From Clostridia bacterium (GTDB lineage: Bacteria > Bacillota > Clostridia > Oscillospirales > Acutalibacteraceae), in contig JAFSLT010000070.1 in the NCBI GenBank assembly GCA_017448285.1, positions 3,501-67,500 on the forward strand: DNA of 64,000 nt, in the 5' to 3' direction. Within the stretch, counting starts at the first letter, position 1. Every line of letters begins with the position of its first letter. Under the pieces are notes generated by a model that did no database searches, was not told where the DNA came from, and saw only the letters and a program-made list of their open reading frames with translations. Of this stretch, positions 11,554 through 51,969 are shown piece after piece. Made by a program: the position numbers and the translations under genes.

Positions 11554-11672
11554 AAAGAGGTGATTTTCTTGAAAAATAAAAATCAAATTAATAATTTCCT
11601 CTCCGGCATCGCCGGAGAAGAACTCCGAGTTAGACTTAAGCTAAAGAGGTGATTTTCTTGAAAAATAAAAAT
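11554..11672 (+). repeat. 30-bp direct repeat pair duplicating the RBS and start of the parC-like gene
   Basis: aaagaggtgattttcttgaaaaataaaaat occurs at 11554..11583 and again at 11643..11672. A PE hairpin lies between the two copies. Confidence 0.9.
11598..11620. repeat. PE copy
   Basis: cctctccggcatcgccggagaag. A degenerate second copy, ttctttccagtaccgccggagaat, lies at 11524..11547. Confidence 0.85.
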
Positions 11673-23711: not shown

Positions 23712-24395
23712 ATGAAGAAATTTGGTAGAGATAAAGTCGCGTTATTTCTTGCGTGTGCGTCAGTTTTAGGTAGTAAAACCCATGCTATGGATAAAAACAA
23801 AGCTCAAAACCCGCAAATCGCTGTGGAAGTAAGGAAGAAGGCAAGTTCTTGTTCTAAAGAAATACCTAATTGGTTAAAGATTTTAACGGATATTATGGAT
23901 ATTTTAGGAGTTGCTTCGGCAGTTGAGCTTTACAACGAAATTATGGGCGGAATTTATGGTACAAATTGGTATTTGGGCAAATATTCTATTGTGAATTATC
24001 TTAGACAGCAAAGTGAACATTTAGATGCTTTATTGAAAAAATTTAAAGATGCATCTAAAGAATCCACAAAATCCAATGAATATTTTTTGAAACGCAGGCA
24101 ATTTTTAATTGATATTTATACAAGTGTTTTTAAAGGACAATATAATTTTATTACTAAAGATAAAGGGCAAATTGAAAAACTAAAGTCAATTATAAGTTTT
24201 ATTCTTGAACCAAATATTGCAAAAAATATAAAAGTTCGACTTCATGAATACGGTAAAAACAATCTAGCATACAGATTCTGTATTGATGAGAAAGAAGAGT
24301 TTGAATTGTTAAAGAGAAAAAATAGTGCTTTTTTATTTTTTAATAATGAAGGAGTTCTTAAAATCGATTTGCAAGAAGTCAAACACAAAAATTAA
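23712..24395 (+). CDS. Leader-family protein (function unknown)
   Basis: Leader MKKFGRDKVALFLACASVLGSKTHA. The NEIMGG...GKYSIVNYL block is paralogous to the gene at 34924. Confidence 0.7.
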   Translation: MKKFGRDKVALFLACASVLGSKTHAMDKNKAQNPQIAVEVRKKASSCSKEIPNWLKILTDIMDILGVASAVELYNEIMGGIYGTNWYLGKYSIVNYLRQQSEHLDALLKKFKDASKESTKSNEYFLKRRQFLIDIYTSVFKGQYNFITKDKGQIEKLKSIISFILEPNIAKNIKVRLHEYGKNNLAYRFCIDEKEEFELLKRKNSAFLFFNNEGVLKIDLQEVKHKN

Positions 24396-34258: not shown

Positions 34259-34357
34259 AACCTTCCTCAAAATTTAGACTATATACTCTATTATATAGTT
34301 TTTAATAACATTTACAAGTCAAAAATCAAATTGGTATTAAAAAATGCATAAACAATA

Positions 34358-34422
34358 TATTTCTCCGGCGTCGCCGGAAGGAGCATTTCCTATTTTAATT
34401 TTTAAGTTTCGAAAGAATTCTA
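34358..34422. repeat. PE copy with one long arm
   Basis: ttctccggcgtcgccggaaggagcatttcctattttaatttttaagtttcgaaagaattcta. It is a direct repeat of 34735..34790. Confidence 0.9.
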
Positions 34423-34724: not shown

Positions 34725-34734
34725 CTCAAGTTTT

Positions 34735-34790
34735 TTCTCCGGCGTCACCGGAGGAAGCATTTCCGATTTTAATTTTTAAGTTTCGAAAAA
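34735..34790. repeat. PE copy with one long arm
   Basis: ttctccggcgtcaccggaggaagcatttccgattttaatttttaagtttcgaaaaa. Confidence 0.9.
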
Positions 34791-34825
34791 AAATAAAAAT
34801 TTTCATGAAAAATATCAATTCATGC

Positions 34826-34923: not shown

Positions 34924-35796
34924 ATGTCGAAATTCGATAAGAAGACAATCGCAACAGTTTTGGCGTTTGCGGCACTTTTTGGTAATAAAACTTCGGCAAC
35001 AACAGTAAATCCCCAAACCGTTGGGGCAGTAGGGGGAGCGGCTTCAAGTCATTCTGAAAAGCTCAAGAAAACTCAAGGTATGGGCATCGGTGCAAAAGTT
35101 GCAATTGGAGCAGCGGCACTGGTTGGCGCATATGCTACTGCAAATGAGGTTTTGGGCGATACCGGTCTTGTCAATCACCCTGCAATGGGAAGGTACACCA
35201 TCAAAAAAACAATTGGGTATTTGATGAGAGATTTTAAAAAAGAAGAGGCATTGATCGATAATATTGTTGAGTTTATTGATAATTCCGGTGCAAATGAGGT
35301 TTTTGAATTATTCTCAAAGAAATTGAAAAATTTGGGAATAGATTTGAAATCTTTACTGAGTGGGAACTTTCTGCCAAATGTAACACAAACACAAAAACAA
35401 GAAATTCTGAAGGCAAAAAATGAAATTTTAGCAGAAAATAAAAATTTAGTATCTAATATTAAAATCGACAAATATTCATTGGGCTTTAATACCGAAGAAG
35501 ATAAAAATGTAACTAAGTTAGAACTATTAAATTTATTACCAATAATTAGTATTTCATTAAAAAGTATTAGTGAAAATTTAAAAGATTTTAGTTATCATTC
35601 TACTGGAGTATTTAAATCTGATTTATCTAAAAACAGTGTTTTTTTGGGTAATGAAGATATTAATTTTATTTTAACTTTAAATAACGATGGCAGTTTAACA
35701 ATAAAAGGTTGTGCCAAAAAGTATACTGACCCACTTAGTGGCAAAATTATAGATAATTTTAATTATCAGTTTACAATTTCTGCCCCTAAAAAATAA
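34924..35796 (+). CDS. Leader-family protein (function unknown)
   Basis: Leader MSKFDKKTIATVLAFAALFGNKTSA, then a Gly/Ala-rich helix GMGIGAKVAIGAAALVGAYATA. RBS aggagg. Confidence 0.75.
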   Translation: MSKFDKKTIATVLAFAALFGNKTSATTVNPQTVGAVGGAASSHSEKLKKTQGMGIGAKVAIGAAALVGAYATANEVLGDTGLVNHPAMGRYTIKKTIGYLMRDFKKEEALIDNIVEFIDNSGANEVFELFSKKLKNLGIDLKSLLSGNFLPNVTQTQKQEILKAKNEILAENKNLVSNIKIDKYSLGFNTEEDKNVTKLELLNLLPIISISLKSISENLKDFSYHSTGVFKSDLSKNSVFLGNEDINFILTLNNDGSLTIKGCAKKYTDPLSGKIIDNFNYQFTISAPKK

Positions 35797-36300: not shown

Positions 36301-36876
36301 TTAACTTTTTAAATTTTCCAAAAACGATAACTTCAAAGTTTCACTTTTTAAAAATTCTCCGCCCATATTTGTTGTTACTGTCTTTGACGATACATTATGT
36401 ATCCCTCTTGCGGTCACGCAACTGTGTTTGGCTTCGATGTGAACTGCTATGCTATCGCTTTTAGTCAAAATTCGCATGATATCAATTATGTCTTCGGCGA
36501 TTTTTTCCTGCAATTGTAATCTTTTACAGACCATATCAACTAATCTTACAATTTTTGAAAGACCTAAAACAAAATTTTGTGGTATATAACCGACTGAAAC
36601 TTTCATATCATACATAAGTGCAATATGATGCTCGCATAAACTAAAAACTTCAATATCCTTAACAACGACCATATTTTTAGAATCAGTTCTAACATCTACT
36701 TCGAAAGTCTTATTGACTTCATTCGCAATTTCTTCATTCGAAATATTTTCATACGAAGTAAGATACCGCATCATACCTACGAAACGTTTAGGCGTTTCAT
36801 CCATAAGTTTGATCCCTAAACACTCAAAAAGCTCTCTCGTTAATTCTTGAGCTTTGTCAACATCACTACTTCTCAT
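36301..36876 (-). CDS. folE: GTP cyclohydrolase I
   Basis: FSLCEHHIALMYDMKVSVGYIP core. Confidence 0.9.
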   Translation of the reverse strand: MRSSDVDKAQELTRELFECLGIKLMDETPKRFVGMMRYLTSYENISNEEIANEVNKTFEVDVRTDSKNMVVVKDIEVFSLCEHHIALMYDMKVSVGYIPQNFVLGLSKIVRLVDMVCKRLQLQEKIAEDIIDIMRILTKSDSIAVHIEAKHSCVTARGIHNVSSKTVTTNMGGEFLKSETLKLSFLENLKS

Positions 36877-37210
36877 AAACAGCCTTATTATTCTCAGTTT
36901 CCATAACTTCTACCTTAAAACATTTGTCGCCCGACAAATCAAAAACGTACTTAGCAATGTTTTCCATAGTAGGTTGAGGAATTAACTTATTTAACTCTTT
37001 ATGGTCAAAAGCTTCAACTACAGCATTTTTTATTTTACTACAATCACAGACCACTCCATCTTCATTGAGTGACTCCGACCTACAAAAAACTTTTATTATG
37101 TAATTGTGACCGTGTAAATTACAGTCTTTAGAATTATGGTTCAAATTTAAATAATGTGATGATGAAATTTTTATTGTCTTTATAAGTGTATACACAAACT
37201 TATTCACCAC
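36866..37210 (-). CDS. queD: 6-carboxy-5,6,7,8-tetrahydropterin synthase
   Basis: SSSHYLN...CNLHGHNY motifs. GTG start. It overlaps folE by 11 nt. Confidence 0.8.
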   Translation of the reverse strand: MVNKFVYTLIKTIKISSSHYLNLNHNSKDCNLHGHNYIIKVFCRSESLNEDGVVCDCSKIKNAVVEAFDHKELNKLIPQPTMENIAKYVFDLSGDKCFKVEVMETENNKAVYEK

Positions 37211-37850
37211 TTCCTAATATTTCTAAACTAAGTTTTCGTTCAAGACAACCAAAACATTTACCACATGGCTTTTTATAGCTTACAAAACAGCTCCATGTTA
37301 ATTCTACTGGTATATGCATATTTGATTCTTTTGCCATACGCATAATTTCTAATTTTGACGAATTCAAAAATGGCGTTAATAGCTTTAAATTACTAACAGA
37401 ACCATAAAATATAGCCTTTGATTGGGCTTTTAAAAACTCTAAAGAACAATCAGGATAATGAAAAGACGCACTCGATGTCGTACCAAATATAATATTCTTA
37501 TAGCCTATATAATAAACATGAGCAGCAACAACAGAAATCATAACACTATTTAAAAAAGGCATGTAATAATCATTAAATTTTTGAAAATCTAAAGAGGATG
37601 GTACAGTCATACCATCATACAAACTACTTACATCCAAAATTTTTAAATGAACATTGTAATATTTTGCTAATTGCTCTACACACTTTTGTTCTTTTAAAAC
37701 TTGTTTTGGATTAAAAATAACAAAGAAAGCCTTTAAAGATGACTTCAACTCTTTTTCCCTTAAAAAAGACAACAAAACCGCACTTGTTAAGCCACCGCTC
37801 AACATCACTGCGCTCGGTACATCTTCAAATTCAAAATTATTCATATTCAT
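37200..37850 (-). CDS. queC: 7-cyano-7-deazaguanine synthase
   Basis: PP-loop-like MLSGGLTSAV and a C-terminal Cys cluster CGKCFGCLERK. Confidence 0.7.
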   Translation of the reverse strand: MNMNNFEFEDVPSAVMLSGGLTSAVLLSFLREKELKSSLKAFFVIFNPKQVLKEQKCVEQLAKYYNVHLKILDVSSLYDGMTVPSSLDFQKFNDYYMPFLNSVMISVVAAHVYYIGYKNIIFGTTSSASFHYPDCSLEFLKAQSKAIFYGSVSNLKLLTPFLNSSKLEIMRMAKESNMHIPVELTWSCFVSYKKPCGKCFGCLERKLSLEILGSGE

Positions 37851-37937
37851 GATTTATGTAAACCATTTCTAAGAATCTATGGCCATTATTTCTCACTTAC
37901 ATACTTTGTTAAAACGTTTGTAAATACAAGTTCTAAC

Positions 37938-38279
37938 ATACAAGCAAACCTATAAGCCGAGTTCTGTCTATGTGATCATCTATCTTGGCCTGAAATTACT
38001 CTCAAGCTCACTGCCACCTCTGAAAACAGCCGAGCAAGCTTTTTTCGTTTTCCTCGCGGTGTTGCTCCGGGTAGGGTTTACGTAGCAAGCCAGTTGCCTG
38101 ACCTCCTGGTGAGCTCTTACCTCGCCTTTCCACCCTTGCCTTTCGGCGGTTACTTTCTGTCGCACTATCCCTAAGGTTTCCCTCGGCGGCGGTTAACCGT
38201 TACCCTGCTCTTTGGAGCTCGGACTTTCCTCACTTTTATACTTTCGTAATCAAAAGCGCGATCACCCGGTCTGCTCAAA
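37938..38279 (-). ncRNA. rnpB: RNase P RNA (bacterial type B-like)
   Basis: The minus strand contains GAGGAAAGTCCGAGCTC and ACAGAACTCGGCTTATAG, the universal conserved regions. It is a GC-rich island. P1 pairs gagcagacc with ggtttgctt. Ends are approximate to about 10 nt. Confidence 0.85.
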
Positions 38280-38283
38280 TTCT

Positions 38284-38311
38284 ATTGTAAATAATGAGTT
38301 ATTTTTTGCAA
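38284..38311 (-). promoter_or_regulatory. Candidate rnpB promoter
   Basis: On the minus strand: TTGCAA, 16 bp spacer, TACAAT, ending about 6 nt before the predicted P1 5' end. Confidence 0.5.
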
Positions 38312-38514
38312 GTCGTCGAAGCAGAATTTTCATCATAAATGGATTTTTTTCGATATAATAATACATCAAACGCGCTTGAAAAAGTCAATATACTCTTTCA
38401 AAAAATTTAAGTTATCCCCGGGAATACTGGAGGGGACGCCTTTTTCAAACATAATTTTTCAATGCCTTGAGAAAAATTAATTTATTGATTTTTTTCTGAC
38501 CTATAAAATATAGT

Positions 38515-38535
38515 TTTTCCGGCGTCGCCGGAAAG
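38515..38535. repeat. PE copy
   Basis: ttttccggcgtcgccggaaag. Confidence 0.85.
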
Positions 38536-38564: not shown

Positions 38565-38593
38565 TTGACAAATTGATTTTTATGTTTTATACT
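38565..38593 (+). promoter_or_regulatory. Leader-family promoter block
   Basis: cTTGACAaattga, 17 bp spacer, TATACT. Confidence 0.6.
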
Positions 38594-38653
38594 GTAGGAT
38601 GGTCGTGCGAAAATTGCTTTTTAAATTTTTAAATCAATTGGAGGTAGTTTCAT

Positions 38654-39426
38654 ATGCCAAAATTCAATAGAAAGAAAATAGCATTAACACTTGTATGTGC
38701 ATCAATTTTGGGCGGTAAAACTCAAGCAGCTCAAAATATTAAAACCGAGCAAACCCTTGCGGCAGTAGGGGGGGTTCTTCTAAGTTTAATAAACTCACTA
38801 AAAAACAAAAAATTGCCATTGGGTTGGGAGTAGGATTAGGAGTCGTTTCAATTGGGGTTATCAGTACTATAATTGCACTTGCAATTAAAGGTAAAAATAG
38901 TAATACCAATAATGGTAATCCTACAAAAGTTAAGAATGCAATGAACGAATTAGAAAATAAAGGTGAGATTCAACAGAAAGACAAAAAAGGTGAGTTCTAT
39001 GAAAAAAATCAAAAAATGATCAAAGATGGTACTGCGAAATTAGGTGATGAGCCACAAAAAAGATATGATGCTATAAGAAAACTTATATTAAATTATAAAG
39101 ATAATGACCTTTCAAGTCATATTAGCAATATTTATGATACAATTGATGATTGTATTATACAAAATTCAGATAATATAAAAAACGAACACCGAGAAAAGTA
39201 TATTAAAATGTTGGATGAATTTATTAATATTTATTCCGGGGAAAAAGAGCTCACAAAATTTTCTGCTGAAGACAATGATAATTTTGGTTTAATTGTAGAA
39301 GTTCAATCCAAAGATATTCATTACACTATATATTCAAACGAGATAAAAGTAGAAAAGGTTAACAATAATGATGAAGTTATACTTAATATGAATATTAATG
39401 TTGAAGATTTTTTAGATTTAGATTGA
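38654..39426 (+). pseudogene. Leader-family gene interrupted by a frameshift in a G7 tract (phase-variable, pseudogene or sequencing error)
   Basis: ATG 38654 gives MPKFNRKKIALTLVCASILGGKTQA...AAVGG, then the G7 run (38768..38774). The paralog-like sequence GSSKFNKLTKKQKIAIGLGVGLGVV continues in the +1 frame through 39426. Confidence 0.8.
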
Positions 39427-51141: not shown

Positions 51142-51969
51142 TTACTCCTCCAATTGTTCTTCTAAAGGCACCTCTAAAGATTTTTCTAAAATCACAACAG
51201 ACTGCTTGCCAAGTTCTAAAAACCTTTGATTTACTAGCTTTTTTTCGTAGGGTATTACACCATGATTTTTGTAAGGATCATTAAAATAATAATTATTATC
51301 ATCATATCCTACTAAAACCAAGCAGTGCTCGCCTTTCATCCACGTGAATATGTCACCAATTTTGTATGGCGAATTTTCATCAACATAATTTATAATCCAA
51401 CTACGTCCAGGGCTGGTTTCTTTCATGTCCATTGTTGCCCAAATTAATACTGGAATATCTTTGTCAATATAATTTTTGATTAGATCAATTAAATTCATTC
51501 CTGTTGTAATTTTAGTTTTATGTTTTTTAGTATCTACCACCTTATCGATAGATTTTGCAGTTCCCGGCGCAAAAATACCAAAACCAAAATTTTTACCACT
51601 GGATTCGTAAGGATTTCCTGCATAAGTAGCATGTGGATCAGGCCCATGCATATGTCCGCTCTTTACAAACCAATCTTTTTTAATTAAATATTTATCTGTA
51701 AAATCTTTTTCTGAAATTTCATATCCATAATACTGCAGAAGCATAGTAGAACTTACAGCCTCACAGCCGTAAACTATATCATTTTGATTTATGTACGGTA
51801 CATTAATTAGTTTAGTTGGTTTGCAAGAATTTTTAATTTCTTCAGGTACATTATTTATTTCCGCAGCAACTGTTTTCCCATTCATAGCCTTAGCAGTTGG
51901 ATCCCAACTTGTTTTTGTAAACAACATTTGTAACGATAGTAACCCTGTCATCATAAGTTTATAATTCAC
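51142..51969 (-). CDS. Secreted C39-like (papain-fold) peptidase domain protein
   Basis: Signal-like N terminus, INVPYINQNDIVYGCEAVSSTMLLQYYG (Cys nucleophile context) and HCLVLVGYDDNNYYFNDP (His context). Confidence 0.6.
   Translation of the reverse strand: MNYKLMMTGLLSLQMLFTKTSWDPTAKAMNGKTVAAEINNVPEEIKNSCKPTKLINVPYINQNDIVYGCEAVSSTMLLQYYGYEISEKDFTDKYLIKKDWFVKSGHMHGPDPHATYAGNPYESSGKNFGFGIFAPGTAKSIDKVVDTKKHKTKITTGMNLIDLIKNYIDKDIPVLIWATMDMKETSPGRSWIINYVDENSPYKIGDIFTWMKGEHCLVLVGYDDNNYYFNDPYKNHGVIPYEKKLVNQRFLELGKQSVVILEKSLEVPLEEQLEE

Follow-up and report, generated by a model that had tools for sequence, protein, structure and literature searches.

The locus and its G7 tract

The stretch of DNA analyzed here (64,000 nucleotides with 32% GC, hereafter the window) belongs to an uncultured ruminant-gut Clostridia bacterium, a spore former, as the window encodes a homologue of SipL; another ORF of the window has an N-terminus that we take to be SpoIVA-like. 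Downstream of the gene for RNase P RNA there is a small gene with its own expression signals, a conserved leader, a run of seven G and a body in another reading frame. Its features, on the forward strand unless stated otherwise, are as follows.

37937-38277, minus strand: bacterial class A RNase P RNA (255 bits), directly 5' of the gene
38516-38534, no strand: GC-rich palindrome TTCCGGCGTCGCCGGAAA, a copy of the hairpin element described below, terminator-like for the minus strand, just 5' of the promoter
38565-38593, plus strand: predicted sigma-70-type promoter, TTGACA-17-TATACT (match to 11 of 12 consensus positions)
38640-38645, plus strand: RBS GGAGGT, 8 nt 5' of the ATG (read from the sequence)
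38654-38728, plus strand: Sec-type signal-peptide-like leader MPKFNRKKIALTLVCASILGGKTQA, conserved family-wide in the alignment
38729-38767, plus strand: end of the conserved leader module, AQNIKTEQTLAAV, with near-identical DNA in several paralogs per metagenome
38768-38774, plus strand: G7 homopolymer, coding for Gly-Gly plus one base; G8 and G5 are in frame, G7 and G6 out of frame
38775-38833, plus strand: out-of-frame tail LLSLINSLKNKKLPLGWE and stop (from translation)
38812-38889, plus strand: predicted single transmembrane (TM) segment IAIGLGVGLGVVSIGVISTIIALAIK in the body frame (from hydropathy, with coordinates computed from the body frame)
38890-39426, plus strand: orphan C-terminal domain of about 177 aa and stop, intact in all alleles seen

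The ORF with its start at ATG 38654 contains the seven G in its codons 39-41; it reads MPKFNRKKIALTLVCASILGGKTQAAQNIKTEQTLAAVGG into the run and stops at 38831-38833. Its 59-aa product, MPKFNRKK...TLAAVGG followed by VLLSLINSLKNKKLPLGWE, ends 19 codons after AVGG and not 17, the figure given in a preliminary description of this DNA that had otherwise placed the break in the frame correctly. From the tract onward, the +1 frame meets no stop before 39424-39426, and gene callers report it as a separate ORF of 200 aa starting at TTG 38824, ahead of which no recognizable RBS could be read in the sequence. As had been proposed, one more G (G8) or two fewer (G5) restore a single protein, of 257 and 256 aa, respectively, and the junction in the G8 frame reads AVGGGSSK; a G6 tract gives a product of 42 aa ending in ...AVGGFF*. 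The same 59-aa product of the G7 form (P0028) is on record from 12 contigs.

The tract was also rightly described as very unusual for this DNA, as no second run of G or C longer than five is found in the 64 kb of the window and the base counts predict about 0.1 G7 runs on the forward strand. Nor can the tract be put down to codon usage: in the 30 longest ORFs of the window, GGG is the rarest glycine codon (13% of Gly codons), and not one of the 49 Gly-Gly pairs in them is written GGGGGG.

The leader is made of a basic n-region, a 13-residue hydrophobic core and TQA|A, the putative cleavage site. As a leader of the double-glycine (C39) type it would presumably be a poor candidate, the AVGG context matching the bacteriocin leader consensus badly, and as a lipobox the window gene has L-V-C in place of the L-A-C that we assume for this motif. 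In the restored protein, the TM segment corresponds approximately to residues 54-79 and is preceded by a short linker. The C-domain is acidic and rich in Asn and Lys, and its center (about 39020-39280) is mosaic between alleles. The restored protein had no match above threshold in Pfam, and a HMMER search with the C-domain against 1.84 billion representatives retrieved only four clusters, all of them alleles. An AlphaFold model of the C-domain, with a pLDDT of about 90 over residues 55-200, contains helices and an antiparallel sheet, and its best fold match in the PDB was not significant (E = 0.16, TM 0.25). We infer that the signal peptide is cleaved and that the product is exposed at the surface; a simple topology prediction with a cleaved leader and one TM segment would leave the C-domain in the cytoplasm, which is unexpected for the variable domain of a phase-variable surface family.

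Several other elements of the window deserve mention. The GC-rich spurious ORFs at 37972-38360 belong to the RNase P RNA. The palindrome CTCCGGCGTCGCCGGAG and its close variants, with 18-nt sites at 11601, 13888, 24565, 34362, 38517, 44188 and 52138, give 11 matches at seven intergenic sites against 0.02 expected by chance, and the element looks like a REP-like sequence or a shared terminator hairpin. It is also contained in a 65-nt direct repeat (34353-34417 and 34727-34791, 88% identity). At 61079-61424, between an ORF at 60759-61031 (minus strand) and a GTPase-like gene, a 173-nt unit is repeated twice in tandem with 90% identity, and the two copies generate look-alike spurious ORFs. The window also codes for a set of proteins with N-terminal hydrophobic or signal-like segments, several of them eukaryote-like, a cluster that hints at an interaction with the eukaryotic host or with rumen protists:

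40551-41306, minus strand: OGFr_N-like region (E = 5e-5)
44413-47205, minus strand: 930-aa AAA ATPase
51142-51969, minus strand: C39_2 peptidase
58102-58935, plus strand: VWA protein
61459-62400, minus strand: Ras/Roc-type small GTPase (Roc, E = 2e-13)

Tract length and gene integrity in other samples

The preliminary description had suggested comparing the tract in related strains, and public assemblies allowed us to do so. We found the same locus in 19 public ruminant-gut metagenome runs, each represented by assembled contigs with one consensus per sample, and the tract came in three lengths, out of frame in 15 of the 19:

G7, out of frame, 12 of 19 runs: X1, X4, X5, X6, X7, X10, X12, X15, X16, X17, X18, X20
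G8, in frame, 4 of 19 runs: X2, X3, X11, X19 (three studies, three SNP backgrounds)
G6, out of frame, 3 of 19 runs: X8, X13, X34 (two studies, two SNP backgrounds)

Leaving aside a recombinant block in the body, the flanks of the locus differ by only 0-4 SNPs in every 400-500 bp, and no other site of the locus changes as much as the tract. Its length is independent of the SNP background. In X19, the G8 tract lies on the window's own haplotype, with no other difference over 38600-39018, and it is found together with 39052T in X2 and X3 and with 38730T in X11; studies P2 and P7 each contain both G7 and G8. The in-frame form therefore exists, observed only in Logan contigs and in one instance at a depth of 2.7. 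Three ENA assemblies that come from other assemblers (L002-L004) contain the G7 form as well, and the G6 product is on record as a JGI protein (P0027, ...AVGGFF). The contigs of run X14 (45x, study P7) end at 38774 and restart at 38768, that is, at the edges of the tract. Such breaks are expected in a k=31 graph from a mixture of G7 and a longer tract, which gives only a hint, and a search for the bubble arms of a within-sample mixture in X14 found none. Variation is also present around the start codon, where some alleles (X8, X10, X13) have a C inserted behind 38637 and X34 has a 15-nt duplication (38645) that leads to a 5-aa N-terminal extension, as in P0027.

The body of the gene contains no additional stops or indels in the window, in L002-L004 or in P0001, P0002, P0004, P0005, P0009 and P0010. 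Two of the out-of-frame alleles, P0004 and P0010, have accumulated 18 and 51 body substitutions with respect to the window, and their 200-codon body is still open. These differences cluster at body positions 197-453 and match blocks of intact alleles, a structure that points to recombination. The dN/dS ratio among out-of-frame alleles is about 1.0-1.4, which fits neutral drift as well as diversifying selection; since the differences sit in the recombinant block and look imported by recombination, the ratio cannot separate the two. Neither of the alternatives raised in the preliminary description, a sequencing error or a gene with a uniform G7 and further decay, agrees with these data, as the length varies, no allele has extra stops or indels, and G7 and G6 are on record from independent sources.

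More distant orthologs (L005-L009) are intact, with 254-258 aa, and have interrupted tracts: GGGGAGG in L005, with the junction GTAGGGGAGGCGACTTCTTCTAAG (AVGEATSSK), and AGCGGGG in L006-L009, with the junction GTAAGCGGGGTAACTCCTTCTAAG. The junction of the window is 4 nt shorter than that of L005, so the G8 form amounts to a net in-frame deletion of 3 nt (AVGGGSSK). Upstream of the gene, synteny breaks: L005 (758-2826) and L006 (692-2844) carry genes for a Rce1-like (CPBP) protease and GCS2, and the window (36301-38277) and L002-L003 have instead folE/queD/queC-like genes and the RNase P RNA, with the same genes downstream. A scan of genome contigs gave a single, partial relative, L001 ("uncultured Clostridia bacterium"), which lies at the end of a contig and is uninformative for the tract. 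In RNA runs, this gene is represented only by short contigs over 38827-39020, none of which crosses the tract.

A leader shared by many genes

The restored N-terminus aligns, as stated earlier from the sequence alone, with the paralog at 34924 (E = 2.6e-8 in a comparison with the ORFs of the window, 39% identity over 74 aa), and also with the ORFs at 23712 and 60247 (minus strand). Predicted promoters of a similar type, TTGACA...TATAAT, precede the paralogs at 34924 and 23712. The consensus of the leader, M-KF-R-KIAL-LACASILGGKTQA...QTLAAVGG, is common to genes with two linker/TM modules and many unrelated C-domains. P0011, for instance, combines the window's leader with the other TM module and the window's C-domain, and its G7 is in frame (GGG GGG GCG). 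Each metagenome examined contains at least three other contigs that match 38739-38774 almost exactly, G7 included, before diverging with C... A tract at the same junction, from G5 to G11, was found in the following sister genes, at least three of which have both in-frame and out-of-frame alleles:

34924-35796, plus strand, paralog in the window: G5 at 35032-35036, at the homologous AVGG junction, in frame; G6 out-of-frame allele in L022
L012 gene: G7, in frame, in two DNA and two metatranscriptome runs; G8, out of frame, in a JGI contig
L024:19324: G7, in frame; P0089 matches its G8 product, out of frame
L024:10001: G6, out of frame; in-frame form not seen
L023: G11, out of frame; in-frame form not seen

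The L012 gene is transcribed, as the metatranscriptome runs contain full-length contigs of 1.2-1.6 kb. In P0046, a further allele of this gene, the frame is lost at the tract, and the tail that follows agrees with G6. In RNA run X35, the L012 contig starts at L012 position 5, right after the adaptor and about 32 nt 5' of the ATG, which may be the 5' end of the transcript.

With a profile built on the 40-aa leader, we recovered 83 clusters of leader-only ORFs of 29-76 aa, most of which exit the frame at the Gly run, with a median tail of five residues after it; 17 of them read "GGR...", 13 "GGGD/N..." and 15 have four or five Gly, and a few pass the tract in frame and are truncated further on. 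Since the search returned short proteins only and missed known long members such as P0011, these counts yield no ratio of in-frame to out-of-frame forms. When metagenomes were scanned for the pattern of the leader end followed by G5, 11 of the 12 matches were chance hits or unrelated DNA, mostly from GC-rich contigs, and L012 was the only family member.

Some members of the family appear to have exchanged parts around the tract, a region that seems to serve as a junction for recombination. A contig from run X9 contains the window's leader (38646-38774, 100% identity over 129 nt) joined at the G7 to the alternative TM module (ATAKNSSKGF...), and in P0021 the window's out-of-frame tail stands behind a different leader with a duplicated EQTLAAV. 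Directly 3' of an out-of-frame family member in a related MAG, L024 (11270-12707) and L025 (11331-12878) carry an IS-type transposase (HTH_Tnp_2, rve), and in L025 the body of that member is also broken into pieces of 63 and 140 aa.

Probable phase variation and related systems

An intragenic homopolymer, a one-unit change in length that toggles an intact gene, and a length polymorphism independent of haplotype are what simple-sequence-repeat contingency loci present, and the three are found here. We consider it likely, with a probability of roughly 0.78, that the family undergoes slipped-strand phase variation at a poly-G embedded in the leader and that the copy in the window is OFF, the reading that had been put forward in the preliminary description and that gains support from the occurrence of G6, G7 and G8 among near-identical alleles and from the same polymorphism in sister genes. 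Replication slippage would add or remove a G at the point where leader and body meet in the gene, whose product is predicted to be a small membrane protein with a single pass. With G8 the gene would be ON, leader and body being fused into the 257-aa protein, and with G7 (the window) or G6 it would be OFF, with translation ending after 59 or 42 codons. Since the body has no RBS of its own and the G7 is out of frame, the window strain would be in the OFF state of a translational switch, a state that would be heritable and also reversible within a lineage. If the leaders of the sister genes switch in the same way, a cell would express different subsets of leader-sharing proteins with diverse C-domains, which presumably has a selective value.

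The gene could instead be a plain pseudogene with a mutational hot spot, inactivated, for example, by the loss of 4 nt at the junction, in which the length of the run drifts without selection and G8 arises by accident. The family's usual junction is G7 followed by CGAC, and compared with it the G8 frame reflects a 4-nt loss, so the locus could have been damaged first. The predominance of OFF lengths (15 of the 19 runs and the three ENA assemblies), the dN/dS close to 1 among OFF alleles, the junction 4 nt shorter than in L005, and RNA contigs that leave the tract uncovered would all be compatible with such a history. However, a decaying gene would show further stops, indels or lost expression signals, and none of these was found among alleles with up to 51 substitutions: there is no second lesion in the 600 nt of body, and the promoter, the RBS and the leader are conserved. 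Moreover, the in-frame G8 recurs in three SNP backgrounds from three studies, and the same on/off polymorphism is found in intact paralogs, one of them transcribed; the tract behaves, hence, like a shared feature of a living family rather than the scar of one dead gene. Taken together, we regard a pseudogene as unlikely.

Recoding is a less probable alternative still, one to which we give little credence. The G7 form would be expressed through a -1 slippage of the ribosome on tRNA-Gly (G GGG GGG), or through slippage of the RNA polymerase adding a G, and would represent a state of low expression rather than OFF. The P-site tRNA-Gly can indeed re-pair perfectly one base back, with GGT-TCT-TCT as the next codons, which is the body frame, and a weak stem (CCCTTGC/GTAGGGG) overlaps the tract. 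Yet at programmed frameshift sites both the slippery sequence and the out-of-frame arrangement are conserved in orthologs, and here L005-L009 are in frame and the length itself is variable (G6, G7, G8 and interrupted in-frame junctions). The same shift would not rescue G6, the RNA and DNA contigs of the L012 sister gene both have G7, and we saw no canonical X XXY YYZ heptamer followed by a structured region. Hardly credible at all is an error of sequencing or assembly that hides a G8 tract and an intact gene, as G7 came up again in 12 runs that had been sequenced independently in about 10 studies, and also in the three ENA assemblies from other assemblers, G6 and G8 each recur in several runs tied to particular SNPs, and a run of 7-8 nt is well within the accuracy of an Illumina consensus at depths of 5-47x. 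What speaks for an error is that the sequencing of homopolymers is prone to mistakes, that Illumina chemistry has difficulties with G-tracts (PMC9187656), and that the window comes from a metagenome assembly.

Beyond slipped-strand phase variation of the leader genes, one can envisage, with slightly less than even confidence, a device that works across the whole family, in which a conserved leader cassette ending in poly-G (G5-G11) would act both as an independent on/off switch for each of a large set of genes whose orphan C-domains are unrelated, and as a junction for shuffling leader, TM module and C-domain. This commensal, a spore-forming Firmicute, would then have a combinatorial "phasome" of membrane or secreted proteins, possibly with a connection to the eukaryote-like secreted proteins that neighboring genes encode.

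For mucosal pathogens, phase variation by homopolymers is textbook knowledge, but it is poorly documented in strictly anaerobic commensal Clostridia and hardly explored in uncultured rumen bacteria; here, public metagenomes alone reveal a tract and its copies in sister genes toggling between strains. Dozens of the short "hypothetical proteins" and split genes annotated in rumen MAGs are probably OFF states of real genes, and a consensus assembly cannot give the strain-level expression of this leader family. The G7 form should be annotated as a phase-variable frameshift rather than as two genes or a pseudogene. Considering that the lineage has no cultured member, the family provides candidate factors for the interaction with the host, phages or protists.

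The mechanism is known in kind, and what is new is the family, an orphan from an uncultured lineage. Our literature search retrieved no earlier account of the family, nor of a comparable switch in rumen Clostridia. Conserved leaders followed by variable bodies are present in the Vlp/Vsa lipoproteins of Mycoplasma and in the sequence-variable mosaic proteins of phytoplasmas, which resemble the window family in their conserved N-terminal export signal, their diverse mosaic mature parts and their many copies per genome. However, those systems vary through promoter poly-A tracts, invertases or gene conversion and not through an intragenic poly-G at the end of the leader, and we found no sequence similarity between the window protein and any of them. 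Tracts as short as the one described here do switch, as that of glpK in Mycobacterium tuberculosis has 7 nt. Homopolymer phase variation of glpK (10.1101/717272, PMC10334774) and the poly-G/C contingency genes of Campylobacter and Helicobacter (PMC3068675, PMC2823697) share with the window gene an intragenic G/C homopolymer in an AT-rich or tract-poor genome and a reversible frameshift. They differ in that most of them are individual genes with an established function (glycan modification, restriction-modification, metabolism) rather than a family united by one leader, and in that they come from cultured organisms, with measured switching rates.

In Bifidobacterium breve, bbr_0113 and bbr_1889, of a sortase-dependent pilus, are switched by replication slippage at an intragenic G-tract, and the switching was measured (PMC9187656). 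This is also a Gram-positive gut commensal, and the resemblance extends to the position of the G-tract between an ORF with a Sec signal and a body ORF without its own translation start, to the fusion being decided by tract length, and to the database entries being OFF (PMC9187656). In contrast, their tracts are G11-G12 in a high-GC genome and their products are LPXTG pilins encoded in sortase operons, whereas the window family has G5-G11 at 32% GC and a leader shared by a multigene family, with switching inferred rather than measured. The 257-aa product lacks an LPXTG motif and gave no match to pilins or sortases in Pfam, and the neighbors of the gene (RNase P RNA, queC/D/folE-like genes and a methyltransferase) do not form a sortase context; hence, we rejected its membership in the B. 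breve type of pilins. In the opa genes of Neisseria, CTCTT repeats lie in the region coding for the signal peptide, and each copy has its own promoter, switches independently at the level of translation and forms mosaics by recombination; the products are outer membrane beta-barrel adhesins of a Gram-negative pathogen, with homologous bodies and hypervariable loops. Both are multigene families with a slippage repeat in the leader-coding region of every copy, the differences being a pentamer versus a homopolymer and homologous bodies in opa versus unrelated C-domains in the window family. The closest analogue is, by arrangement, the G-tract of the B. breve pilins and, by logic, the opa family of Neisseria.
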